This document shows, piece after piece, positions 2,856-37,363 of a stretch of DNA of 37,363 bases (the first letter of the stretch is position 1; each line of letters starts with the position of its first letter). Origin of the DNA: a virus (Duplodnaviria > Heunggongvirae > Uroviricota > Caudoviricetes); IMG/VR virus record IMGVR_UViG_2718218309_000005, positions 1-37,363 of that record. The stretch is one strand, 5' to 3'. The notes below the pieces were generated by a model that was not told where the DNA came from, searched no databases, and saw only the letters and a program-made list of their open reading frames with translations. Both the position numbers and the translations under genes were made by a program.

Positions 2856-3071
2856 TCAAAGAGAGAGCGCCCCCTGTCCTGATTTCATTGGATGCGGCTG
2901 AACCGGATTTGACTCTTTTGGCGTTGCAATCGAACGAACAAAAGTTTCATGGGTTACAAAAGTATGGCTGCAGTTAATATTCTGGCACTGGTTGTAACGC
3001 TCTTTGGTCAATGAAGATACCTGAAAACTGCTGCGAGTATGGGCGGCACTTCCACACAGTGGGCAAATCAT
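2856..3071 (-). CDS. ogr: Ogr/B-family zinc-finger late-gene activator
   Basis: CPLCG...C-x2-C zinc-finger pattern (MICPLCGSAAH...ERYNQCQNINCSHTF); start chosen at internal Met (ORF-track codon 13) to give ~71 aa like P2 Ogr. Confidence 0.85.
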   Translation of the reverse strand: MICPLCGSAAHTRSSFQVSSLTKERYNQCQNINCSHTFVTHETFVRSIATPKESNPVQPHPMKSGQGALSL

Positions 3072-3164
3072 CATTTTTCGAGTTCTCCCCATTTTTGCTA
3101 AATTCACAATAATGATACCGCATTATTCCATTTTGCAAACTTAAAAGTTCTCCATTGCGAAGAA

Positions 3165-4747: not shown

Positions 4748-7700
4748 GCGTCGTATCCCCCCTGATCGCTGTAGTTACTCCTGGCTTTTGCCTTCAGCCT
4801 GCGTTCACGTTCATCAAGCTGGCGGGCCACCTCCCGCGCAATATCCTGCGCACTTTGTCCTGGCTGCGTCTGAATGATGATCTGCGTCGGTGCCTCAATC
4901 CGTTGAACGGGCGGCACAGTGGCTGCACGACTCACCATCGCTTCGCCGCCTTTCGCGGGAAGTGCCAAAGGATGTAACGGTGGAAGCTCTGTAGGCGCGG
5001 CAGCAACGCCCATCATTCCGGCAACAACCGCAGCCAGTGCAGCGGTATTTCTCCGGCTGGTCACGTTTGCCGGGCCGTTGACAATTTCCGGCCCGTTTTC
5101 ACCGACGATGCCAAACTGCCCGCGCGGGATATAGCCGCCGCTGTCATACATCCCCGCAAAGCCATATCCCCATGACGGAAAACCACCCGATGGCATCATC
5201 ACTTTACCGTCTGCATTCACCGTCGCAGGTTGCTGACGCGTCACGCTTTCCGGCAGTTTCGCCTTTGCGGCCTCTTTACTGACAATGCCGAGCTTCTCCA
5301 GCAACCAGGAAACGCCGGATTTCAGTGAGTCCAGCGGATGCATGACCATATTCAGCCCTTCCGCCAGTGCCTCCCCGAATCGTCGCCCCATTGCCGCTGC
5401 ACTCTGCAGTTCGGCAGAGGTCGACTTAACGGGCGTCAGCAGATCAGTAAACCAGCCCCACAGCGCCTGCACTTTGTCGCCAATCCACTGAAACACAGGC
5501 TTAAGTGGTTCGAATGCAGCACTGATGGGACCTGCCGCCGCTTTGAATCCTTCCACCACGCCACCGAGAAATGCGGTGATGGGTTGCCAGTATTTCCAGA
5601 CAACCAGCGCCACGCCCGCCAGTGCAGTAACCACAAGACCTATCGGACTGAGCAGAGCACCTAACAGACCAGATACGGCATACAGAGCAACGCGCAGCAT
5701 CGCCAGCGGACCGGATGCCAGCACTCGCAGCACCGCGCCTGCGGCGGTCAGTCCACCGCGCAGTACCGCCAGTGGATTCATAAACATCACAGCAACCGCA
5801 CGTAAACCGGATAATCCAGACCGCAATAGTGCAACCGGCGCACCTGCTACAGTTTTCAGGACATTTCCCGTCAGTGATGCCGTACGGCGCAAAGACGACA
5901 ACGGCGCAGTAAGTAAACCCGCTGCGTTACCCGATGAAGCAAGCCCGCGTCGCAGCACTGCCAGTGGAGCGCCAGCCAGCCAGGACAACGCGCTGCTGGT
6001 TCGTGTTACTGCTGCCGTAACGGAAGGTAACGTTTTGATGCCCAGCACAGAGAATCCCAGACGGATGACTGCCAGCGGCCCCAGCACTGCAGCCAGCGCC
6101 ACAGCCAGGGTGCCGAGTCCTACGGTAACCGCAGCCACAATAGCGGCTACTTTCATCAGTGTGCCCGTCAGTTCCGGGTTAGCTTCCACCCAGCGACGCA
6201 ACGCTCCCGTAACGCTTTTCACCGTGTACAGAATATCCATCAGCGGCTGGCGCAGCGTTTCGCCCAGGCTGCTGAAGGTATTCTGCGCTCCGGTTTTAAC
6301 CAGCAACCACTGAGCAGAAAGTGAGTCCTTGTTGATGTCGGATTCTTTCTGCATGGAACCGAGCGCATCATTGCCCGCTGTCAGTTTTAGCTGGCGCTGC
6401 AGTTCCGGCAGGTTGTTTGCCAGTTTCGCCGCGTCATCACCAAACTCTTTACCAAACAACATGGTCATGGCAGCCAGACGCTTGTCCTGCGGCAGTGCGT
6501 TCACCTTCTCCAGCACACGCTGGATAGTTCCCATCGCATCCTTCGTCATCTGCTTTTCAATCACTTCAGGATTGAGTTTCAGCAGATTCATCCCTTCAAA
6601 GAAACTCTTGCTTTGCATGGTGGCAATGGACAATTCACGCACCATCGCGTTTGCTGCACTGGCTGCAACCTCCGGCGCAGCGCCCAGTGTCAGAAAGGTG
6701 GAACCCAGTGCCGCCGCTTTACGATAATCCAGACGGTCAGCCACACCGCCCAGACGTTGCATCACATCAATGATGTCCGCCCCTTTCGACATGGCGTTAT
6801 CATCCAGATAGTTCAGTGCATCGCCGAGCTGTTCAATATTGCGGGTAGGTATTTTGTAGAGCTGGGCGATTTTCCCCAGACTTTCTGACAGTTCATCCGC
6901 TGGCAGCTCAAAGGCTGTTGCCGCCTTTGCTGCCGTACTGGCGAAGGCCAGCAGGTCACGTTTCTGGTCTTCCCAGCTGTCGTCAGGGTTTGCGACGTTC
7001 ATGCGCGCACCACCTTCAACCAGTGCAGCGAAATCCACCGCACCGTTTTCCATCGGCAACTGTTCGCTGGCAGCCTTGATGGCATCCTGCATTTCATAAA
7101 AACGTGCAGTGCGGTTGCCATTATCGTCACGCAGACCATTGACCTGCTTTGCCACACCTTTCATGGCATCTTCCATGCTGGTATAGCTTTTTACTGCCGC
7201 CATCACTGGCGCACCCATTGCCAGCCCTGCAGCCGTGGTGGTGGCTCCGGCACCTGCAATACGATCACGCACCTCCAGCGAACGGGCATAACTGGCACGC
7301 GCTGCATTCATCCTGCGCTGAGCTTCCCCCAGTCGCTTCAGCCGCGCCTCCTGTTTCGAAAGTTCCTGGTTATAACGTGATGTTTCACGGGCTAAACGGG
7401 CAGTTGCTCCCGCATCGTCTTTCGCAGAAATTCCCGCCCGGTACAGTTCAGCACGCACAAGCGCCGTCTGCTGCTGCAGCTTTTTCTGGCGTTCTTCCAG
7501 GCGCTGAACAGCCAGCCGTTGACGGCCCAGAGCAACAACCTGACGTTGCGAAGGCGGCCCCATCGCTCCCAGTTCCTGACTGAGCAAATTTGCACGCTGG
7601 CGGGCATAGTTCAGCCTGTCGCCTAATTTCTGATTTTCTGCCTGCAGCTTTCGGAAGCTGTCCAGACTGCTCCCGGCCTGATCAAGCTGCTTTATTGCAT

Positions 7701-7821
7701 CGCGGGATTTTTTGACAGCAGCAGCCAGTTCTCTTGAACTGGCCTGCGCAGATCGAAATGGGCGGGTGAGCTTGTCAACCGCATTAAGAATGACCTGCAG
7801 ACGCAGGTTGTTATCACTCAT
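4744..7821 (-). CDS. T: tail tape measure protein gpT
   Basis: 1025 aa, coiled-coil N-terminal part and Ala/Gly/Leu-rich repeats typical of tape measure proteins; sits after E/E'. Confidence 0.85.
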   Translation of the reverse strand: MSDNNLRLQVILNAVDKLTRPFRSAQASSRELAAAVKKSRDAIKQLDQAGSSLDSFRKLQAENQKLGDRLNYARQRANLLSQELGAMGPPSQRQVVALGRQRLAVQRLEERQKKLQQQTALVRAELYRAGISAKDDAGATARLARETSRYNQELSKQEARLKRLGEAQRRMNAARASYARSLEVRDRIAGAGATTTAAGLAMGAPVMAAVKSYTSMEDAMKGVAKQVNGLRDDNGNRTARFYEMQDAIKAASEQLPMENGAVDFAALVEGGARMNVANPDDSWEDQKRDLLAFASTAAKAATAFELPADELSESLGKIAQLYKIPTRNIEQLGDALNYLDDNAMSKGADIIDVMQRLGGVADRLDYRKAAALGSTFLTLGAAPEVAASAANAMVRELSIATMQSKSFFEGMNLLKLNPEVIEKQMTKDAMGTIQRVLEKVNALPQDKRLAAMTMLFGKEFGDDAAKLANNLPELQRQLKLTAGNDALGSMQKESDINKDSLSAQWLLVKTGAQNTFSSLGETLRQPLMDILYTVKSVTGALRRWVEANPELTGTLMKVAAIVAAVTVGLGTLAVALAAVLGPLAVIRLGFSVLGIKTLPSVTAAVTRTSSALSWLAGAPLAVLRRGLASSGNAAGLLTAPLSSLRRTASLTGNVLKTVAGAPVALLRSGLSGLRAVAVMFMNPLAVLRGGLTAAGAVLRVLASGPLAMLRVALYAVSGLLGALLSPIGLVVTALAGVALVVWKYWQPITAFLGGVVEGFKAAAGPISAAFEPLKPVFQWIGDKVQALWGWFTDLLTPVKSTSAELQSAAAMGRRFGEALAEGLNMVMHPLDSLKSGVSWLLEKLGIVSKEAAKAKLPESVTRQQPATVNADGKVMMPSGGFPSWGYGFAGMYDSGGYIPRGQFGIVGENGPEIVNGPANVTSRRNTAALAAVVAGMMGVAAAPTELPPLHPLALPAKGGEAMVSRAATVPPVQRIEAPTQIIIQTQPGQSAQDIAREVARQLDERERRLKAKARSNYSDQGGYDA

Positions 7822-8250
7822 CGTTGGCCCCGCTTCTCTGAATCGCTTTATACCGCCATTCCAGCACTTCGGTCAGCGGCATAACGTCAGTAACGGATGG
7901 CGGCCAGTGAAAAATGGTGGCGATATCAGCCACCAGATCGTCAACCGTCAGGCTGTCGGTAAACCGGCAAGCACCGACTTCTTCAACAAAAAAGTGACAA
8001 CCTCAACCGACATGGCAGTGAGATCTGCCGGGTCCATCTCTGCAATTTCCTGTGCAGTCAGTGCCGGACTGGAGATGCGGGGGATCACGGTCATCATCGC
8101 GTTCACATCCATATCCATAATGGCCTGCAGGCGTGTACCGCGCAGCGCACCGGACTGCGGTTTACGCAGCACAATTTCGGTGATTTCTGTTTTACCTCGC
8201 TTGATGGGGGTATCCAGTTGAATAGTCTTTTCAGTCTGCTTATCGCTCAT
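7814..8250 (-). CDS. gpE+E' programmed -1 frameshift fusion product
   Basis: The -1 frame is open from the slip site (7987) to a TGA at 7814-7816 and overlaps the T start codon; it encodes ...VEEVGACRFTDSLTVDDLVADIATIFHWPP...GANDE. Confidence 0.6.
7948..8250 (-). CDS. E: tail assembly chaperone gpE
   Basis: 100 aa ORF immediately upstream of T; contains the T TTT TTG slippery heptamer near its 3' end. Confidence 0.8.
   Translation of the reverse strand: MSDKQTEKTIQLDTPIKRGKTEITEIVLRKPQSGALRGTRLQAIMDMDVNAMMTVIPRISSPALTAQEIAEMDPADLTAMSVEVVTFLLKKSVLAGLPTA
7987..7993 (-). other. -1 ribosomal frameshift slippery heptamer T TTT TTG
   Basis: E codons ACT TTT TTG (Thr-Phe-Leu) read on the minus strand; same X XXY YYZ class as the P2 E/E' and lambda G/GT sites. 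Confidence 0.65.
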
Positions 8251-8304
8251 TTTGCTGTCCTGTAAATTGGGTTCTGGCGCGGTATCCCGCGCCGTTCAGA
8301 TACA

Positions 8305-8820
8305 TCAGAGGCCGAGGGCGTTGCGGTGCGCTTCCATCAGGTCCACACCGTCCACAATTTCCACCATGTTGATAAGGTCCACTTCATAGAGCACCTCACC
8401 ATTTATAGTCAGCTTCGCGTAGCTGTTGGTACTGGTCACTTTGGTGGTGTTGCTTTCGCCCGTCTTCCACTCTCCGGAATCCACTTCTTTGTGACGTCCA
8501 CGCACCACAAGCTCCACAGCCTGCACTTCCCCGGTATCGTCACGCTGGATAGAGCCGGTAAAGCGCAGCTGGATGCCATCCACCGTAGCTTTGCCCATCT
8601 GTTTAAACAGCAGCAGTTCAGTACCACCAATGGAAAATTCTGTGTCCAGCGCACTGTCATCAAGCCCCAGATCCACATCCACTGCACCCGGCATTCCGCC
8701 GCCGCGATACTTCTCATATTTGCGGGTGAATTTCGGCAGCGTCAGCGACTCAACGATCCCCTGCCAGTTGTTCCCGTCATTAAACAGGTTCAGGTGTTTT
8801 AATTTGCGTGGTAAAGCCAT
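8305..8820 (-). CDS. FII: tail tube protein gpFII
   Basis: 171 aa; P2 FII-like sequence and position. Confidence 0.9.
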   Translation of the reverse strand: MALPRKLKHLNLFNDGNNWQGIVESLTLPKFTRKYEKYRGGGMPGAVDVDLGLDDSALDTEFSIGGTELLLFKQMGKATVDGIQLRFTGSIQRDDTGEVQAVELVVRGRHKEVDSGEWKTGESNTTKVTSTNSYAKLTINGEVLYEVDLINMVEIVDGVDLMEAHRNALGL

Positions 8821-8829
8821 GTTGTCCCC

Positions 8830-10002
8830 TTACGCGCTGACCTGGCTGGAGAAATTCACCAGGTACTGATCGGTGATGCGCTGACGCAGCATCAGGTTTT
8901 CAAGTGGCGGCACTGGCGTGTAGTCGTAATCGATGGTGAGTTTTCCGGCTTTCAGGGTGTCTTTGTCGTTCACCGACTCGTCCAGCCAGCAATCACCACC
9001 AATGAGATACCCCTGACTTACCAGGCTGCGCATTTTGGCGCGGATACCCTCGATAATGTCGCGCGCCAGCGACGGGTTCAGCGGTTTGTCCACCGCCCAC
9101 ATGTGCGCTTCTGCCATTGTGTCCGTCAGCACCTGCGCCGTGCGAGTGTAGTTTTCGAAAGCAAAAAGCGGATCATCGCTCAGACAGCGGGAACCCCAGA
9201 AGCGGAAACCATCCTTGCGCACAAGCGTGGTGACGTCGTTCTGGTTAAGCAGTCCCGCATCGGTTGCCGGGTCCTGCAGATCCCAGAACACATCAGCAGA
9301 AATTCCGGTGACACCGTTCACGCCCACGTTGGACAGGCTTTTGTGCCATCCGGTCTGCTCGTCAATTTTGGCGCGCAGACCAAGCGCTCGGGCGGTGGCA
9401 TATGCCGTTGCTTCGGCATTCAGCACCGTGTCCCAGCCAGTAAAGTCAGGCCAGATCAGCATCCCTTCGCGCTGGCTAAAGTTTTCACGGTAAGTGATCG
9501 CCTCCTGTACCGTCTTGCAGCCATACGCTGACAGGTAAGCAAATCCACGCAGGCTTTGCGCCACGCTCAGCAACTCAGTAGCTACCGCCTTGGTGTCGTG
9601 GCCTGGCACGCCGAGAATGCGCGGTTTAACGCCGAGCTGTGACTGGGCAGATAACAGGGCTTTCATACCTGTTTTTTTACCTTCAGCAGTCACTGCGCCG
9701 ATGATATTGGTCGTGGTTTCGTCTTCCGTTTCACCCTGCGGCACACGCACAACAACGGTCACGGGTTTTGCCTGGTCAGCGATGGCATCCAGCGATCGGG
9801 CCAGAGTACCGGACTCACCCGCTTTACCGCTGGCAGTCAGCACATCAGTGATCAGCACGGGTTTATTAAGAGGAAACATTTTTGCATCGGCATCATCGCC
9901 CGTGCAGACCATACCCACGATGGCGGTGCTCACCGTGGTAATAGATCGGGTGCCTTCGTTGACTTCAACAACGCGCACCCCGTGGTGGTAATCCTGAGCC
10001 AT
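8830..10002 (-). CDS. FI: contractile tail sheath protein gpFI
   Basis: 390 aa; P2 FI-like; first gene of the FI-FII-E-T-U-D operon. Confidence 0.9.
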
Positions 10003-10078
10003 AGTGGCGAACCTCCTGATTGGATTAGGCTTCGCCCTATGTTGAAGTGATTGTGCCTGACAAACAGCTAAGCGCAGT

Positions 10079-10096
10079 TGTGTCGTTATTCACACA
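10079..10096 (-). promoter_or_regulatory. candidate Ogr/B activator site (TGT-N12-ACA) of late promoter PF
   Basis: tgt gtcgttattcac aca, centred ~85 bp upstream of the FI start codon. Confidence 0.5.
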
Positions 10097-10144
10097 AAAC
10101 AACGGTATTTGTCTGCTTGCAGGGATAATCAACATAATGCTGAT

Positions 10145-10711
10145 TCAGGGGGATTCATTGATCTTATTTGCCGGAAATTTTCTATAAATGGTAGAAACGC
10201 CTACATCAAAAATCAGTGCAATACGCTGTCTTGATTCTCCGGCCTCGAGTAAACGCCCAATCTGTGCCCACTGTTCGGTGGTCAACTTAGGACGGCGTCC
10301 ACCTACTCTGCCTTTGGCACGAGCTGCAGCCAGCCCTGCCCTGGTACGTTCAACTATCAGTTCGCGTTCCATTTCAGCCAGGGCACCCATGACATGAAAA
10401 AAGAAACGGCCCATTGGGGTACTGGTATCAATACTGTCAGTCAGGCTTCTGAAATTCACACCACGCTGGCGCAACTCTTCTATCAGCGTAACAAGATGCC
10501 GCATACTGCGCCCCAACCTGTCCAGCTTCCAGACAACCAGCGTGTCTCCTGCCGATAGTGTCCTGAGTAGTTTTTTCAGCCCCGGTCTGTCGGACTTAGT
10601 GCCACTGATTTTGTCCTCAAAAATCTGCTCACATCCCGCGCAGTTCAGTGCATTACGTTGCAAATCGGTGTTCTGGTCATTTGTTGACACGCGTACATAG
10701 CCAATAAGCAT
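10145..10711 (-). CDS. serine DNA invertase (Hin/Gin/Cin/Pin family)
   Basis: N-terminus MLIGYVRVSTNDQNTDLQ with the catalytic Ser motif, plus a C-terminal HTH; lies directly outside the invertible segment. Confidence 0.85.
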   Translation of the reverse strand: MLIGYVRVSTNDQNTDLQRNALNCAGCEQIFEDKISGTKSDRPGLKKLLRTLSAGDTLVVWKLDRLGRSMRHLVTLIEELRQRGVNFRSLTDSIDTSTPMGRFFFHVMGALAEMERELIVERTRAGLAAARAKGRVGGRRPKLTTEQWAQIGRLLEAGESRQRIALIFDVGVSTIYRKFPANKINESP

Positions 10712-10738
10712 GATCATCCCCCTGAATAAAAACCGGAG

Positions 10739-11233
10739 ATGATGCCAGTTAGCTGTTACCTCTGCATTTTCTTAAACGTTGGTTTGGGAGAAGCGGCAAA
10801 ACGGAATGTGGGCAACGGGGAAAACCAAATCCCTGATATGTCTTTCTGGACGGTTACTGGTGGCAATGGAAATTTTGTGATTCGTCAACCTGACGGGCTA
10901 ATCATTCAGATGGTTACTGTAAGTATAAGCGGCCCAGTGGCGATGAATGGAATGACTGATAATGCTTATGCCATCACAGGTTCTAATAAGTCTTATATTG
11001 CCACAGCCACATTGCCCTTTGTATTTCCTAATAAGGTGCTGGGCGTTATCCCTCTGGTATCAACAACAGCCTATGGTGGTGTATCCAGTAATATTACAGG
11101 TTCATACGCGACGGCGGTTTGTTCTTTTGCCGCTGTCAGGGGGAATAATACGATTGTGTTCAAAGTCGACAAACCACTGAATGCAGCCTTTCCTTCAGAT
11201 ACCAGCGTCTCAGCGTTAATCATTGGACGGTAA
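10739..11233 (+). CDS. alternative tail-fibre C-terminal cassette (silent in this orientation)
   Basis: The ORF reads through the left crossover site (..IFLNVGLGE..) and has no plausible own start context; it would be fused to the constant H N-terminus after inversion. Confidence 0.6.
   Translation: MMPVSCYLCIFLNVGLGEAAKRNVGNGENQIPDMSFWTVTGGNGNFVIRQPDGLIIQMVTVSISGPVAMNGMTDNAYAITGSNKSYIATATLPFVFPNKVLGVIPLVSTTAYGGVSSNITGSYATAVCSFAAVRGNNTIVFKVDKPLNAAFPSDTSVSALIIGR
10767..10792. repeat. invertase crossover site, left (26 bp, hix/gix-like)
   Basis: ttttcttaaacg tt ggtttgggagaa; its right half-site ggtttgggagaa (coding G-L-G-E) is repeated in inverted orientation at 12712-12723. Confidence 0.7.
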
Positions 11234-11235
11234 GA

Positions 11236-11679
11236 ATGAACTCAGTATTCTTTTCACCCGGAAGTAAAAGTTTTTATCTGCAAGAATTGTTTCCAGAATA
11301 TGAGGATGCGGGAACGCTTCCTGATGATGTTATTGAAATTACCCGAGAAACATATGAGCAATTTCTTGGGCTGCATCCAGAAGGGAAAGAAATTGGCGCT
11401 GACAGTTCAGGACGGCCAATATGGATTAATTCCCCGCCGCCTTCAAAAGAGGATGAGGTGCTGGCGGCTGAAATGAAAAAAATATCTTTGGTTTCAGAAG
11501 TCAATACCTACATCAATACCCATCAGTGGCCTGGCAAAGCTGCTATTGGTCGTCTGAAAGGTGACGAGCTGGAACAATATAATTTATGGCTGGATTATCT
11601 GGACGCACTGGAACTGGTTGATACCTCCAGTGCTCCAGATATTGAATGGCCTACGCCTCCAGTAGTTCAGGCCAGATGA
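11236..11679 (+). CDS. alternative tail-fibre assembly chaperone (Tfa/U'-like)
   Basis: 147 aa with the C-terminal motif LDYLDALELVDTSSAPDIEWP shared with the G product; partner of the alternative fibre cassette. Confidence 0.7.
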   Translation: MNSVFFSPGSKSFYLQELFPEYEDAGTLPDDVIEITRETYEQFLGLHPEGKEIGADSSGRPIWINSPPPSKEDEVLAAEMKKISLVSEVNTYINTHQWPGKAAIGRLKGDELEQYNLWLDYLDALELVDTSSAPDIEWPTPPVVQAR

Positions 11680-12256
11680 CATCCGGCGCGGTGCTGATAT
11701 CTGTTGCAGTCACCGCGTCAATGTAATCCAGCACAGCGTTAAGCCGGGTTGTTTCTGCCTGCGTCAGCTTCCGCCCGGCCTGCAATTTCAGCTGAATCAG
11801 ACTAATGGAAGCCATAGCCGCATCAATCAGTGACTGGCGCCGTACTTCTGCCGCGTCTACTGCGGCGTTATGCTGTGCCTCAGTGTCGGTCACCCATTTC
11901 TCACCATCCCATTTATCGTATGACGTTAACGGGGCGATAGTGGTTGTATTTTCAGGGTAATCACCCGGAACTGTGATTTCTTTTGATTCTCCTGTTTCGG
12001 TGCTATAGACGATTTCACCGCGATGGTCTGGCACATATTCCCATGAGTTAAAATCTGCAGAACGGCAAATTGCATAACCAGCTTTATATGAGCCAGGAGC
12101 ATCTAAACAGGAACATGCCGGGATACCGACACCCACAGCAAGATATTCAGTTGATGTGGAAATATATTCCCGTGTTTCACCATCATAATTATAAACGGTA
12201 ATGTCTCCGGCCTTTGTGGCGATGAGTTCATTATTTAATACAGCTTTACTTATCAT
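11651..12256 (-). CDS. G: tail-fibre assembly protein gpG
   Basis: 201 aa, C-terminal LDYIDAVTATDISTAPDVIWPE motif; immediately downstream of H. Confidence 0.8.
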   Translation of the reverse strand: MISKAVLNNELIATKAGDITVYNYDGETREYISTSTEYLAVGVGIPACSCLDAPGSYKAGYAICRSADFNSWEYVPDHRGEIVYSTETGESKEITVPGDYPENTTTIAPLTSYDKWDGEKWVTDTEAQHNAAVDAAEVRRQSLIDAAMASISLIQLKLQAGRKLTQAETTRLNAVLDYIDAVTATDISTAPDVIWPELLEA

Positions 12257-13773
12257 GCAGCCCTCACAATATAATTAAAGGCGATGTTACGGGAGCGGGT
12301 TTCAGATGCTGTGCGAACTGAGCGAGATGCGTCGAATGTCCAGTTATAAGCGCCATAACCCTCAATAATTTCGGCTTCCTTTAGACCTGTAGATAATACT
12401 TGCCCATGTTGACTAAATGGCCCTGAACTAAGTACGTCTCTAAAAAGCTGGGTACGCCCAAAAGAACCAACAATATTCTGAATTGCATCATTCTGTGCAG
12501 ATAATAAGTTACGACCAGAGTCAATCCCGCGCCCATCATCCCAGCCACGAATAAATTCACCGCGTAAATCTGGTAATTTTAATGTTGGGTAAGCCTTTGC
12601 CAGATTTGGGTACTTTTCAGAAGAAAATACTGCTCCGTTACATTTTAGCCACCCCATTGGCGGAGTGGCTGAAGGCCACGGAACAGGCACACCAACCGGT
12701 AATGCAGAGCCTTCTCCCAAACCAAGGTATGTGAGAAGACCAGCTACATCCTTTCCACTCAAATTGGTAAGCGTATTGTCCAGCGGTTGTTTACCTGCCA
12801 GCGCATTAAGCATTGTCGTGGCAAAGTTCGGATCATTCCCCAGTGCCGCCGCCAGTTCGTTCAGTGTATCCAGTGCAGCAGGTGCAGAACCCACCATTCC
12901 TGCAATCGCCGATTTCACAAAAGCCGTAGTGGCAATCTGTGTATTGTTGACCGACTGCGCCGCCGTGGGGGCTGTTGGCGTTCCGGTGAGTGCCGGACTC
13001 GACAACGGTGCTTTTAGTGCCAGCGCATTGTTAATGGTGGTACTGAAATTCGGATCATTGTTAATGGCTGCGGCTATTTCTTTCAGCGTGTCCAGCGTGG
13101 CTGGCGCACCATTAATAAGGGCCGTCAGTGCCGCCTGTACAAACGCAGTGGTCGCAACCTGCGTGGTATTATTCCCCGCCGCTGGCGTTGGCGCTTTGGG
13201 GGTTCCGGTAAATGTCGGGCTGGCTTTTGGCGCGTACTGTGAATGCGGGTCCGGTGCGGCAAGATGTTTTGCCATCTGATCATCCGCGTAAACCTTCAGC
13301 TCCAGTGCCTTGTCATCCACATACTTGCGGGTTGCCAGCACTACAGCAGGGTCGATTTTCAGGGTGATATTGTCCGTGCTGCTGGTAATCAGCACCATGC
13401 GCACGGTCTGAGTGCGCCCGCTACCTTCAGCCAGTTGCGGCTTATAGCTTTCCGGGCAGTTGCCCACGGCAATCAATGCCCCGGACTCATCAAACAAGCC
13501 CACTTCACGTATCCACCAACCGCCCTCGTTTTCAGGGATCACCTGTTCGGCAATAATCTGGCTGCTGTTCTGCGGGTCGATATAAAGCATATTCAGCGCA
13601 GCCCGGCGTTTCTCATTTACCAGTGCCGTCTGCTTTGCGTCCGGCGTTGGCAATACTCCACCGCCATCGCCCACCGCCATATGGGTAATTTTTAGCGGCA
13701 CACCGAGCGCGGCGGCGCTGGCAAGTTTCGCCGCGCCAATATCCGTCAGCAGGGTATAAAATTTTGTGCTCAT
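12253..13773 (-). CDS. H: tail fibre protein gpH (constant N-terminus + currently expressed variable C-terminus)
   Basis: 506 aa; the right crossover site lies inside the ORF at the ..LTYLGLGE.. position. Confidence 0.85.
   Translation of the reverse strand: MSTKFYTLLTDIGAAKLASAAALGVPLKITHMAVGDGGGVLPTPDAKQTALVNEKRRAALNMLYIDPQNSSQIIAEQVIPENEGGWWIREVGLFDESGALIAVGNCPESYKPQLAEGSGRTQTVRMVLITSSTDNITLKIDPAVVLATRKYVDDKALELKVYADDQMAKHLAAPDPHSQYAPKASPTFTGTPKAPTPAAGNNTTQVATTAFVQAALTALINGAPATLDTLKEIAAAINNDPNFSTTINNALALKAPLSSPALTGTPTAPTAAQSVNNTQIATTAFVKSAIAGMVGSAPAALDTLNELAAALGNDPNFATTMLNALAGKQPLDNTLTNLSGKDVAGLLTYLGLGEGSALPVGVPVPWPSATPPMGWLKCNGAVFSSEKYPNLAKAYPTLKLPDLRGEFIRGWDDGRGIDSGRNLLSAQNDAIQNIVGSFGRTQLFRDVLSSGPFSQHGQVLSTGLKEAEIIEGYGAYNWTFDASRSVRTASETRSRNIAFNYIVRAA
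12712..12737. repeat. invertase crossover site, right (26 bp, inverted relative to left site)
   Basis: ttctcccaaacc aa ggtatgtgagaa; the first 12 nt are the exact reverse complement of 10781-10792. Confidence 0.7.
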
Positions 13774-14375
13774 GGATTCACTCTCATTGTGTCAATAACA
13801 TGGACCGCCCCGCCTTCATGCGCGGTGCCACCGGAAATAATCGTTTCGTTGATATAGGGATAGATCGTGATTTCTTCGCCAAGATAGCTGGCGGCTCCCA
13901 CCCAATGCGGGCCGCTGGTCTGCAGATTGATGGACATGCCGATCATGTGACGGCTACATGGTTTGGCATCGCTTATCAGTCGCTCAAGTTCCAGATAGGT
14001 ATCTTCAGTGATGCCCTGGTCCTGCACACCAATGTCCAGACGAAACGTGCCCGGTGTTTCTCCGGTCTGCCACCACTCAATAATGCGGATCAGGAAGCCG
14101 AACGGCTCCACCACCCGCCGTACGGCACTGGTGGTTCCTTTGTGCTGATGAATATAAAAAGCATCCTTCACTACCTGGCGTTTGACGCTTTCTGTCCAGC
14201 CCTCGTCCCAGCGATCCACAGAGAACGCCCAGGCGAGATAAGGCAGGAAACTGATCGGACAGGTTGCCGGATTCCACAAGTCACGCAGCGGCACCTGCAG
14301 ATCAGTAATCCCGCTGCAGGTTTGCGCCAGTCGGCGCTCCAGTGAAGTTGAACCCGGTGGCAGCAGACTATTCAT
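13770..14375 (-). CDS. I: baseplate protein gpI
   Basis: 201 aa, P2 I-like N-terminus (..SLLPPGSTSLERRLA..). Confidence 0.85.
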   Translation of the reverse strand: MNSLLPPGSTSLERRLAQTCSGITDLQVPLRDLWNPATCPISFLPYLAWAFSVDRWDEGWTESVKRQVVKDAFYIHQHKGTTSAVRRVVEPFGFLIRIIEWWQTGETPGTFRLDIGVQDQGITEDTYLELERLISDAKPCSRHMIGMSINLQTSGPHWVGAASYLGEEITIYPYINETIISGGTAHEGGAVHVIDTMRVNP

Positions 14376-16304: not shown

Positions 16305-17120
16305 ATGCACTGCAGATATTGCGAACAAGATGGAATAATAGAAAGAGAACATATTATCCCTAAATTTATATATAAATATCAAAAAGAATCTGGAGATCGT
16401 TTTATAGGCTGGAACGAGAGAGCAAATGATATAATTGGTGGTGAGGCAACAATTGCCGATGTTTGTAAAACATGCAATGGTGGAGCATTAAGTTTTTTAG
16501 ATGATTATGGAAGTCAGTTTTTAGCCAGAAACGGTTTCTTAACCCAACTTTATCTAAAGACAAAAACGACTATAACTTATGATTATCATTTATTGCTACG
16601 CTGGTTAATGAAAATTTCTTACAACTCGGCAAGCGCGGTCAATGATCCATCCACACATATTTTTGGCGCATATAAAGATTATATTCTCCGCGGAGAACCT
16701 TTGCCTTCAGAAAAAGATGTCATGCTCTTCGCTGGACTGCTCATGCCTCTTAAACTTACTGACGAGCAAAAAAGCGAACTTAATATACCTACAAGTGAAG
16801 ACAACCTTTGCTCTCCCTTTAAAATGAGAATAACCAAAAATGACCCTGTTCTGTTACGCAGCGGTATTATTTTAAAAGGTATATTTTTTGGAAGCATATT
16901 TTTTTATCTCGTTATAACTGAAAAATCAGCCTTAATAAGTAAAAGTTATTTGAAAAACAAAATTATAAAGAATGAAAAAGTAAAACTTATCAATCCGTCA
17001 AGTAGCGAGATGCTTCTACCAAACTGTGGAAAAAACTGGATAACTGCAAGTGAAACCCAGCTAAAAAAAGAGATATCTAATTTAGGGATGGAGCATATCC
17101 ATAAAAAATTAAAAATATGA
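16305..17120 (+). CDS. HNH-motif protein (cargo gene, opposite strand to the late operons)
   Basis: N-terminus C-x2-C ... EHIIPK ... C-x2-C-N arrangement typical of HNH nucleases; AT-rich; ~210-aa C-terminal extension of unknown fold. Confidence 0.55.
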   Translation: MHCRYCEQDGIIEREHIIPKFIYKYQKESGDRFIGWNERANDIIGGEATIADVCKTCNGGALSFLDDYGSQFLARNGFLTQLYLKTKTTITYDYHLLLRWLMKISYNSASAVNDPSTHIFGAYKDYILRGEPLPSEKDVMLFAGLLMPLKLTDEQKSELNIPTSEDNLCSPFKMRITKNDPVLLRSGIILKGIFFGSIFFYLVITEKSALISKSYLKNKIIKNEKVKLINPSSSEMLLPNCGKNWITASETQLKKEISNLGMEHIHKKLKI

Positions 17121-25951: not shown

Positions 25952-26956
25952 TTATTCTTCTGAATCATCATAAACATCCATTCCTTCGGTCTGATTTCTA
26001 ATATAAGAAGTCCCCATAGAATTAGCAATCGCAGTCCGAATTAACCCTACATGAGTGAAAAACACCCCTAACCTAGCACGCTTTAACTCAGACTCATCAT
26101 CATAGTCATCTTCATTACTTATAATTCTTCTAACCATTGCCTTATCTTCGTCAATAGCCGAAGGTAGCCCACTCTTTAAAGCGTCAATACACTCACCTAC
26201 AGTTATAATTTTATTTTTAATTAATTCAGAAAGCAAATCATCATAATTTTCATCATCAGATTTATTATCAGGTGGTAATTCACTTGCAGCTATCATTTTC
26301 AGCAATTCTACGTCAAGCATAGTTCCTCTATCTAGTCTGCTTGTCTCAACATACCCCTCACGCTCTGATAACACTCTTTCAAATTCGAAATCAACGACTT
26401 CAAGCAAAGCAGATACTCTATTAATTGCTCGCCTAAGAGGAAGTGGAACACTTTGCTCTTTTTTGTATTGCAGTTTATGAGATGCTGCAGCCCAAATATG
26501 CTGAGAAAGCGTTCGTATTTGCACCTCCACTTTCATATTTTTAAAATCACTAAAGGATGGAACTCTTAGCCATTCTTCTGGAGGTTGTATTACATAATGA
26601 TGAGATTGGTACCCAAATCTATCCTCATCCAGTTCATCAAGTTTATTCTCTTGCTTCAAAATAATGAAATGTTCTTTCAGACAAGATATAACCTTTTCAA
26701 CATCTCGCTTAAATAGCATTATTAATCGGATTCCAACATAATCATCCAAGTCAACTATTGACTCAATCTTTAGAGGTTTTCGGTTATCCTTATTAATAAT
26801 AGAACTTAATGTTTTGACACGGCTTTCAATTGGAACCCCTAAAGACAATTTATTCTCCGACAAAATAACATCAATTTGCTCAACCATAACTCGTCTGAAC
26901 AATTCCGCAACTGAGCCGTAAATTGAATGCTGTTCTTTTAATTCTTCGTCTGTCAT
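25952..26956 (-). CDS. RelA/SpoT-domain nucleotidyltransferase (toxSAS-like; candidate CapRel-type fused toxin-antitoxin)
   Basis: Synthetase-domain signature ..RVKTLSSIINK..RK..IVDLDDYVGIRLI..GYQSHHYVI..VEVQIRTLSQHIWAAASHKLQYK; ~140-aa acidic C-terminal extension; AT-rich; no adjacent small antitoxin ORF. Confidence 0.65.
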   Translation of the reverse strand: MTDEELKEQHSIYGSVAELFRRVMVEQIDVILSENKLSLGVPIESRVKTLSSIINKDNRKPLKIESIVDLDDYVGIRLIMLFKRDVEKVISCLKEHFIILKQENKLDELDEDRFGYQSHHYVIQPPEEWLRVPSFSDFKNMKVEVQIRTLSQHIWAAASHKLQYKKEQSVPLPLRRAINRVSALLEVVDFEFERVLSEREGYVETSRLDRGTMLDVELLKMIAASELPPDNKSDDENYDDLLSELIKNKIITVGECIDALKSGLPSAIDEDKAMVRRIISNEDDYDDESELKRARLGVFFTHVGLIRTAIANSMGTSYIRNQTEGMDVYDDSEE

Positions 26957-27296: not shown

Positions 27297-27530
27297 TTAA
27301 TGCAGCCAGCTGTCGTCTTCCCACACCTTCTGCATAATTTTCATCACTTGTTTTCTTTCTTCGTCCAGTTGCAGTCCGGTTAGTTCCACACCGTTAGAGC
27401 TACCTTTGCGAATGCGAATTACCGTTTTGGGATACAGGGGGCGCAGATTGCGGTAAAGCTCGGATTCAAGGGCGTCCAGGGTAGACTGGCTAATCTTCTG
27501 CTCTTTATCGATCATTATTTCAATGCGCAT
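27297..27530 (-). CDS. DinI-like protein
   Basis: 77 aa MRIEIMIDK...VWEDDSWLH with clear DinI-family layout; start at the internal Met of the track ORF. Confidence 0.8.
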   Translation of the reverse strand: MRIEIMIDKEQKISQSTLDALESELYRNLRPLYPKTVIRIRKGSSNGVELTGLQLDEERKQVMKIMQKVWEDDSWLH

Positions 27531-27540
27531 AAAAGTCACC

Positions 27541-27729
27541 TCAGCTGATGACATCCATTGAGCGGTTGTATTCGTGGGTTCTGATTTTTGCCATGAGTTC
27601 ATCAGTCAATTCAGAAACCCACTGCAGAGCCAGCCCCTTCTCTTCATCACTACACTCACTAGCCGCTACAAGCTTAAGAAAAAAATCAATGCGCTGGAGC
27701 TTCAAAGACTCCAAAAAATAGTCCTGCAT
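27541..27729 (-). CDS. small acidic protein, candidate SOS-induced antirepressor (Tum/Gfo-like slot)
   Basis: 62 aa from MQDYF..; strong RBS AGGAGG 4-5 nt upstream; LexA box ~45 bp upstream; function inferred from context only. Confidence 0.4.
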   Translation of the reverse strand: MQDYFLESLKLQRIDFFLKLVAASECSDEEKGLALQWVSELTDELMAKIRTHEYNRSMDVIS

Positions 27730-36310: not shown

Positions 36311-37363
36311 ATGGCAGTACGAAAACTCACCACAGGAAAATGGCTTTGCGAATGTTACCCCGCCGGACGTAGTGGACGTCGTGTGCGTAAACAATTCGCC
36401 ACCAAAGGCGAAGCTCTGGCTTTTGAGCGTCACACGATGGAAGAAACCGAAGCAAAACCCTGGCTGGGTGAATCAGTGGATCGTCGAACACTGAAAGACG
36501 TGGTTGAGCTATGGTTCAAACTACATGGTAAATCTCTGACGGCTGGGCAGCATGTCTATGACAAATTGCTGTTGATGGTTGACGCTCTGGGAAATCCCAT
36601 TGCAACCGATCTCACCTCTAAAATGTTTGCCCACTATAGAGATAAACGCCTGACAGGAGAGATCTACTTCAGCGAAAAATGGAAGAAAGGAGCAAGCCCG
36701 GTCACCGTTAACCTGGAGCAAAGCTATCTAAGTAGTGTTTTTAGCGAACTATCCCGCCTGGGCGAATGGTCGTATCCGAACCCACTGGAGAACATGCGAA
36801 AATTCACCATCGCAGAAAAAGAGATGGCATGGCTTACCCATGAACAGATTGTTGAATTGCTGGCTGATTGCAAACGTCAGGACCCAATTCTGGCCCTGGT
36901 AGTCAAGATCTGCTTAAGCACAGGCGCACGCTGGCGAGAAGCAATAAATCTTACCCGTTCACAGGTGACTAAATACCGAATTACCTTTGTCAGAACGAAA
37001 GGGAAGAAAAACAGAAGCATCCCTATCAGTAAAGAGCTTTACGAAGAGATCATGGCGCTTGATGGGTTCAATTTCTTCACAGACTGCTATTTTCAATTTT
37101 TATCCGTGATGGAAAAAACGTCTATCGTGCTCCCTCGCGGTCAACTCACACACGTTCTGCGCCATACGTTTGCGGCGCACTTCATGATGTCGGGTGGAAA
37201 CATTCTGGCCTTACAAAAAATTCTCGGACACCACGATATAAAAATGACGATGCGTTACGCACATCTGGCACCGGATCATCTGGAAACGGCGCTCCGTTTC
37301 AATCCTCTGGCAACGCTGCCAAGTGGCGACAAAGTGGCGGCAGCGGTTGGCATTACCCCGTAA
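36311..37363 (+). CDS. int: tyrosine integrase (P2/186 family)
   Basis: 350 aa with ..HVLRHTFAAHFMMSGG.. and ..MRYAHL.. catalytic region; GGAGGG RBS. Confidence 0.9.
   Translation: MAVRKLTTGKWLCECYPAGRSGRRVRKQFATKGEALAFERHTMEETEAKPWLGESVDRRTLKDVVELWFKLHGKSLTAGQHVYDKLLLMVDALGNPIATDLTSKMFAHYRDKRLTGEIYFSEKWKKGASPVTVNLEQSYLSSVFSELSRLGEWSYPNPLENMRKFTIAEKEMAWLTHEQIVELLADCKRQDPILALVVKICLSTGARWREAINLTRSQVTKYRITFVRTKGKKNRSIPISKELYEEIMALDGFNFFTDCYFQFLSVMEKTSIVLPRGQLTHVLRHTFAAHFMMSGGNILALQKILGHHDIKMTMRYAHLAPDHLETALRFNPLATLPSGDKVAAAVGITP

Follow-up and report, generated by a model that had tools for sequence, protein, structure and literature searches.

We analyzed a 37,363-nucleotide stretch of DNA (IMG/VR record IMGVR_UViG_2718218309_000005; hereafter, the window) that carries a Peduoviridae prophage of Escherichia coli, and we found among the late genes of this prophage a 1,943-bp invertible segment (10781-12723, measured between the core dinucleotides of its two crossover sites) that holds two convergent tail-fiber cassettes and has a DNA invertase gene of the Pin/Cin/Gin family just outside it. 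The locus is very probably a host-range switch that has two states, is driven by the invertase and is of the same type as the e14 P-segment, the Mu G-segment and the P1 C-segment. The window contains the paired sites, an intact enzyme and an in-frame alternative fiber, and both orientations of the segment occur in nature with their breakpoints at the sites. A system of this kind is already known: its mechanism and family have been documented, as has its occurrence at this place in P2-like prophages, and public genomes contain near-identical copies. Such a switch would act as a bet-hedging device, in which the phage released from one lysogen population would carry either of two receptor-binding tips and host range would be widened.

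Crossover sites, fiber cassettes and invertase

The segment is bounded by two 26-bp sites that are inverted relative to one another. Site L, the invertase-proximal site (10767-10792), reads TTTTCTTAAACG TT GGTTTGGGAGAA on the plus strand, and site R, within the fiber gene H (12712-12737), reads TTCTCCCAAACC AA GGTATGTGAGAA, the reverse complement of which is TTCTCACATACC TT GGTTTGGGAGAA. An earlier note on this DNA, made from its letters alone, had proposed this pair of sites, and both a repeat search and a palindrome scan confirmed it. Within 9900-13900, no inverted repeat was longer than the L/R pair (27 nt, 81% complementary, arms 1917 nt apart), and when the whole window was scanned with the degenerate invertase-site palindrome TTNTCNNAAACCNNGGTTTNNGANAA, L and R were found at one mismatch each. 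The scan revealed no further crossover sites in the 37 kb window, where the next-best palindrome matches had 5 mismatches, the level found in shuffled sequence. The 12-mer TTCTCCCAAACC, which forms the inner half-site, occurs exactly twice in the window, once per strand, at L and at R (chance expectation for one perfect 12-mer, ~0.005 by our own arithmetic).

The earlier note was correct that L and R share a perfect half-site, but the 12 bp it assigned to the match is too short: the perfect stretch common to both sites is 15 bp (TTGGTTTGGGAGAAG) and includes the half-site together with the TT/AA core, the core dinucleotides being identical once L and R are aligned. The half-site is also coding sequence, since GGT TTG GGA GAA is read in frame as G-L-G-E both in the active H gene (residues 351-354) and in the plus-strand open reading frame (ORF) 10739-11233 of the silent cassette, as had been claimed. 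L and R are as long as the pix (e14), cix (P1) and gix (Mu) sites, with the same palindromic arrangement and with the core in the same place. Site L is identical to the invertase-proximal site of a P2-like locus in enteropathogenic E. coli (EPEC) strain E2348/69 and has one mismatch relative to the e14 pin-proximal site, and site R is also found in the relatives L002 (one of two sibling isolates described below) and L004.

The cassette found in the expressed position lies on the minus strand. It consists of the variable C-terminal part of H (12253-12723, -; 156 amino acids including GLGE), which is StfE-like (Pfam Collar, 6.5e-15; 97/170 residues, or 57%, identical to the e14 StfE remnant), and of a TfaE-like tail-fiber assembly chaperone of 201 amino acids in the position of P2 gpG (11651-12256, -; Pfam Caudo_TAP, 1.1e-30), whose start overlaps the H stop in the sequence ATGA. 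This chaperone is identical to e14 TfaE at 180/198 residues (91%) and is annotated as tfaE in RefSeq relatives. The constant N-terminal part of H, residues 1-350 (12724-13773, -; Pfam Phage_tail_fib, 6.5e-65), is located outside the segment. As found, the whole H gene (12253-13773, -) encodes 506 amino acids and belongs to the late operon V-W-J-I-H.

The opposing cassette, on the plus strand, is silent. Its alternative fiber C-terminus (10781-11233, +), which comprises 150 amino acids from GLGE to the stop codon, lies in the promoter-less ORF 10739-11233 and appears gp53-like from a weak Pfam match (Gp53-like_C, 24.2 bits, below the cut-off of 24.9). It is followed by an alternative tail-fiber assembly chaperone of 147 amino acids (11236-11679, +) that is TfaP-like (Pfam Caudo_TAP, 4e-28; 69/125 residues, or 55%, identical to e14 TfaP). 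None of the five ORFs of the locus is interrupted, and neither cassette is truncated. With a constant N-terminus outside the segment and two opposed cassettes inside it, each pairing a fiber tip with a Caudo_TAP protein, the layout agrees with the Mu G- and P1 C-style architecture suggested in the earlier note. Upon in silico inversion at the core, H remained in frame and encoded a 500-amino-acid fiber with the gp53-like tip, followed by the TfaP-like chaperone. No sequence relationship was seen between the two tips (best local alignment: 6 identities over 11 residues), as would be expected if they differ in receptor specificity.

The invertase gene (10145-10711, -) is outside the segment, from which it is transcribed away, and its ORF is intact. 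It occupies the interval between the segment and the sheath gene FI, which is the Z/fun position of P2; both the invertase family and this placement had been predicted, and the latter is in agreement with a survey of phage hotspots that found a DNA invertase to be frequent at the P2 Z/fun hotspot, with adjacent genes inverted alongside it (bioRxiv 10.1101/2024.10.15.618418). The start codon is likely the ATG at 10711 (MLIGYVRVST...), the equivalent of the start used by RefSeq in strain EA7, rather than position 10717. The 188-amino-acid product matches the Pfam families Resolvase (2.3e-53; profile positions 2-144 of 145) and HTH_7 (1.5e-15; 1-44 of 45), and aligns without gaps over residues 1-184 to the Mu Gin structures 3UJ3 and 4M6F (E 3e-93). 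This alignment places Ser9, in the YVRVST motif region MLIGYVRVSTNDQ, at the catalytic position (Gin Ser9, Hin Ser10; the 3UJ3 chain has an alanine there), and the catalytic serine, a mutation of which the earlier note had named as evidence against a switch, is therefore in place. Its identity is 157/188 residues (84%) with e14 PinE and 79.1% with P1 Cin, and the invertase of Escherichia phage 500465-1 has the same sequence throughout (100% identity).

Residues that contact Fis or the enhancer, and that are reported as specific to Fis/enhancer-dependent invertases, are in Hin K47, K/R48, K/R51, Q151, R154 and L155 (PMC3798978). The counterparts of all of these are present in the window invertase (K46, K47, R50, Q150, R153 and L154), the offset of +1 in Hin numbering being confirmed by the match to 1HCR (query 141-185 to chain 4-48). 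On sequence grounds, this enzyme is a full-length Gin/Cin/Pin homolog of the Fis/enhancer-dependent small serine recombinases.

A putative recombinational (Fis) enhancer is located at 10622-10693, corresponding to nucleotides 19-90 of the invertase ORF. In the P1 record, the enhancer of Cin is annotated at the same nucleotides (19-90) of cin, and the window stretch shows 78% identity with cin and 88% with pinE. It contains two Fis-core-like 15-mers, GTGTCAACAAATGAC (10676-10690) and GCGCGGGATGTGAGC (10627-10641), with centers 49 bp apart, both of which carry the hallmarks of a Fis core, a G at -7 and a C at +7. The first of these lies ~97 bp from the center of site L; in the Hin system, the distance from hixL to the proximal Fis site is ~100 bp (PMC3798978). 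In a four-gene comparison, synonymous codons were invariant at 5/19 positions in codons 7-30 versus 7/75 in codons 31-135, a difference that, with few sequences, is only suggestive. By homology to the annotated P1 enhancer, we therefore place a putative enhancer in the first part of the invertase gene.

Additional sequence elements were observed around the invertase gene. Between site L and the invertase start, a weak hairpin with a T-run behind it (10731-10750, -; 6 pairs, 3 of them G-C) is predicted that resembles a terminator and might limit late-operon read-through into the gene. We considered and set aside an invertase promoter overlapping site L, as proposed for gin and hin, for which the consensus scan gave no convincing match. 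In addition, a perfect 12-nt inverted repeat (ATTCAGGGGGAT / ATCCCCCTGAAT, at 10143-10154 and 10716-10727) exactly flanks the invertase ORF. This repeat also occurs in phage 500465-1, but its length falls to 8 nt in relatives of 95% identity, and e14, Mu, P1 and EPEC lack it; given this narrow distribution (the window and 500465-1), we rejected it as the sign of a mobile invertase cassette, and it is probably due to chance.

Segment orientation in related genomes and rival explanations

In complete E. coli genomes, the native arrangement was found in 27 genomes at 80% or more of a 3.9-kb query, and the flipped arrangement in 19 genomes, likewise at a coverage of at least 80%. The closest genome, that of strain EA7 (99.7% identical), has the same orientation as the window. 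Strain 1916D18 is flipped: the inverted query aligned to it in a single piece (100% coverage, 98.3% identity), and its silent cassette is the active tip of the window except for 1 amino acid. The fiber that we predicted by inversion is identical to the annotated 1916D18 fiber at 499/500 residues, including 150/150 in the swapped part, in agreement with the proposed exchange of the C-terminus of H by inversion.

Breakpoints were located in two sibling pig isolates from one site, 1504D004 and 1604D011, both of which have a chromosome of 5,198,112 bp. The two genomes have 0 mismatches in ~18 kb of flanking DNA and differ by the inversion of exactly the segment, with breakpoints inside TTGGTTTGGGAGAAG, as the sequences diverge right after the 15-bp stretch on both sides. 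Orientations also co-exist in clonal cultures at e14 and at two P2-like prophage loci of EPEC E2348/69, as determined by paired-end sequencing and polymerase chain reaction (PCR) (PMC4272514).

Once the segment was flipped back, the siblings (L002/L003, 8795-10699; NZ_CP149565.1 / NZ_CP149553.1) were found to differ by 16 substitutions, all within the segment. The 1604D011 segment haplotype has 100% identical copies in unrelated strains, and the 1504D004 haplotype is unique, with a mosaic appearance and a match to the window-type cassette lineage at 13/16 of the substituted positions. This difference could be a polishing artifact from a paralogous cassette or a real gene conversion. Silent cassettes might even provide a landing pad for the exchange of receptor-binding modules between co-resident prophages, a speculative idea that was drawn from the relatives L002 and L003 rather than from the window and that we think unlikely to hold. 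A second unusual record, NZ_OU342919.1 (E. coli), has two copies of the locus (4890951-4894875 and 7165-11089) in opposite orientations, ~19 kb apart across the record origin and both 93.5% identical to the window; these could represent two prophages or an assembly duplication arising from orientation heterogeneity.

Based on knowledge of the family, dimers of the 188-amino-acid serine invertase would bind both 26-bp sites, and the bound sites would be brought together in a synapse with Fis and the enhancer, within the first ~90 bp of the invertase gene, where the supercoiled DNA branches. Ser9 would then cleave all four strands at the 2-bp TT/AA cores, one subunit pair would rotate by 180 degrees, and the strands would religate with the segment reversed. 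Because the cores are identical, religation would be restricted to the inverted configuration. If the switch behaves as those of Mu and P1 do, flipping would be slow and would take place chiefly in the lysogen, and a lysogen population with two fiber genotypes would, on induction, release a mix of virions with two receptor specificities. Fis and enhancer dependence, the chemistry of strand exchange and the consequence for host range are thus properties that this switch would be expected to have as a member of the family.

Several observations weigh against this interpretation. The inversions described above were found in close relatives and not in the source molecule itself. The outer half-sites of L and R diverge (TTTTCTTAAACG versus TTCTCACATACC), and do so equally in the functional sites of e14 and P1. 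A consensus scan upstream of 10711 for a sigma-70 promoter of the invertase gene gave nothing convincing, the promoter-like matches in the region being at the level expected from shuffled sequence. The second Fis-like core has a G/C-rich center, unlike the high-affinity Fis motif, and we treat the enhancer as putative because the same region encodes the catalytic N-terminus of the invertase, for which conservation is expected anyway.

One could propose that the locus is a frozen relic, in which the invertible architecture is retained, the switch is inoperative in this prophage (because the invertase is unexpressed, or because of a defect in the enhancer or a site), and the plus-strand cassette is a fossil that stays silent permanently. 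The lack of a clear invertase promoter in the consensus scan, the placement of the enhancer by homology alone and the orientation shared with EA7 are what this proposal predicts or tolerates, but it has to be set against five intact ORFs, two full-length cassettes and an invertase that has both Ser9 and the Fis-contact residues and is 100% identical to that of a deposited phage genome. Furthermore, a matching cassette pair is flipped in 1916D18, where the fiber agrees with our prediction at 499/500 residues, and a truncated P2 remnant of EPEC flips in culture with an invertase that is merely 76% identical to that of the window. Since all ORFs are intact and near-identical copies are flipped, we consider it quite improbable that this locus is a relic.

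A second possibility is that the orientation differences were produced not by the invertase but by RecA-dependent homologous recombination at the inverted repeats, or that they are assembly artifacts. The 16 odd substitutions in the 1504D004 segment do suggest that this locus was affected by recombination or by problems in assembly or polishing. However, it is established that efficient RecA recombination generally needs repeats well over the 15 bp of perfect identity present here, the breakpoints coincide with canonical invertase sites, the 19 and 27 independent complete genomes give clean single-piece alignments for their respective orientations, and published PCR and paired-end evidence documents co-existing orientations at homologous loci. 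Given the 15-bp repeat and the clean breakpoints at canonical sites, we find this explanation scarcely credible. Finally, a multi-site shufflon with more than two crossover sites and more than two fiber variants (as in p15B Min, R64-type systems or the three-repeat EPEC P2-like locus) is an arrangement that does occur in P2-like prophages but is excluded here by the whole-window palindrome scan, in which only two sites were near the consensus, and with only two fiber C-terminal cassettes present its likelihood is vanishingly small.

A two-state switch thus remains our interpretation of this locus. It is also of practical relevance, as such loci cause orientation heterogeneity in assemblies and inconsistent annotation, with RefSeq calling the silent tip a 'hypothetical protein'. 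For this reason, users of P2-like phages or tailocins should check which fiber is expressed.

The carrier prophage and its cargo regions

The window begins with a stretch of E. coli chromosome (grxA, ybjM, ybjL and the gene for the small RNA RybB) and continues with a complete P2/186-like prophage, from ogr through the integrase gene; the carrier element is a Peduoviridae (P2/186-like) E. coli prophage. Positions 1-25818 are 98% identical to the EA7 prophage, and two cargo regions differ. The RybB gene (2700-2778, +; Rfam, 105 bits) directly adjoins the ogr end of the prophage (ogr, ~2856-3074), which suggests an attachment site for the prophage at the 3' end of rybB or close to it.

The late genes on the minus strand are, in order, D, U, T, E, FII, FI, the invertase gene, the invertible segment, H, I, J, W and V. 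The P2 late order V-W-J-I-H-G ... FI-FII-E-T-U-D-ogr is therefore present, with the switch located between G and FI, as supported by the Pfam Tail_P2_I and sheath domains and by the RefSeq annotation of EA7. The sheath gene FI (8830-10002, -; Pfam sheath domain) is separated from the invertase stop codon by a spacer of 142 bp. Inside this spacer, at 10080-10097, is a TGT-N12-ACA dyad (TGTGTCGTTATTCACACA), which we take to be the pattern of the Ogr-dependent P2 late promoter PF. If this dyad is PF, the invertase gene lies upstream of PF and is terminal in the V-H-G transcription unit.

Cargo genes occupy other positions in the prophage. The P2 old/tin hotspot, between the portal gene Q and the replication gene, holds genes at 25952-26956 (-) and 27297-27602 (-). 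A 334-amino-acid protein encoded there has a RelA_SpoT nucleotidyltransferase domain (Pfam, 7.5e-20) and a match to PADLOC PDC-S33 (1.8e-16), and its sequence makes it a candidate toxSAS/CapRel-like defense protein; a DinI-like gene is nearby. At this hotspot EA7 carries a TIR-domain gene instead, though its prophage is otherwise 98% identical. Three more cargo genes (33718-36232, +) lie between the CI repressor gene (33036-33689) and the integrase gene (36311-37363). The first encodes a 354-amino-acid protein with no family match, and the second and third encode a 359-amino-acid protein (PADLOC PDC-M11A, 9.6e-134) and a 123-amino-acid ASCH-domain protein (PDC-M11B, 2.2e-49), which together form a candidate two-gene PDC-M11 defense system. 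The corresponding slot in EA7 is occupied by an IS5-family element. Between baseplate gene V and a virion morphogenesis gene, on the opposite strand, is a 271-amino-acid ORF (16305-17120, +) that EA7 also carries, annotated there as hypothetical, and whose sole family match, to HNH_5, is sub-threshold. Because L002 carries a TIR-domain gene at this position, the slot looks like another cargo hotspot.

Comparison with known systems

As judged by alignment, the closest system in sites, invertase and one cassette is the e14 P-segment of E. coli K-12 (pinE, stfP-tfaP / tfaE-stfE). The two loci share their layout, in which a constant part is followed by a C-terminus with its Tfa and, in opposite orientation, a second Tfa with its C-terminus, and in which the invertase gene points away; the e14 inner half-site GGTTTGGGAGAA and TT core are identical to those of the window. 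They differ in that e14 is a defective lambdoid element and the element in the window is a complete P2/186-like myovirus prophage, in that the constant part of the window fiber is P2 gpH-like (Phage_tail_fib), and in that e14 StfP is unrelated to the silent gp53-like tip of the window.

The same gene order as in the window (sheath, invertase, silent tip, second tfa, tfa and fiber) is found in Escherichia phage 500465-1 (Peduoviridae, Wadgaonvirus; NC_049342), in which the 100% identical invertase is annotated as 'DNA invertase'. The region is 95.6% identical to the window over 75% of its length; the silent tip cassette differs, and part of the query is therefore uncovered. The P2-like loci of EPEC E2348/69 (Goldberg et al. 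2014, PMC4272514) are in a shared position, extending from the fiber genes to FI with the invertase gene adjoining FI. One of these (2977580-2979467), a two-state locus, is the one whose invertase-proximal site is identical to L; it belongs to a truncated prophage that is without the constant part of H, and its invertase is identical to that of the window at 146/192 residues (76%). The second EPEC P2 locus has three repeats and can take four states, compared with two sites in the window.

The Mu Gin/G-segment (S-U / U'-S') is also built from a constant part (Sc) and two convergent Sv-U cassettes, with 26-bp sites and with Gin encoded outside the segment, and the window resembles it in layout because in both the 5' end of the invertase gene abuts a site. 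Mu is a transposable phage, however, and its gix core is TC/GA rather than TT/AA, its half-sites differ, and its fiber and chaperone sequences are essentially unrelated to those of the window. The P1 Cin/C-segment shares the TT core and similar half-sites, but cin has its 3' end next to cixL and is directed toward the segment, which is 4.2 kb long, whereas in the window it is the 5' end of the invertase gene that abuts the site. The Salmonella Hin/hix system has in common with the window the enzyme family, the architecture of the 26-bp sites and the Fis/enhancer contact residues. Hin flips a promoter and hin is inside its segment, in contrast to the swapping of a coding C-terminus by an invertase encoded outside. 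More broadly, a domain-wide survey counts phage tail and tail-fiber proteins among the known targets of programmed inversions, with 'Phage tail protein I' and 'tail fiber assembly protein' among the enriched annotations (PMC9881135).

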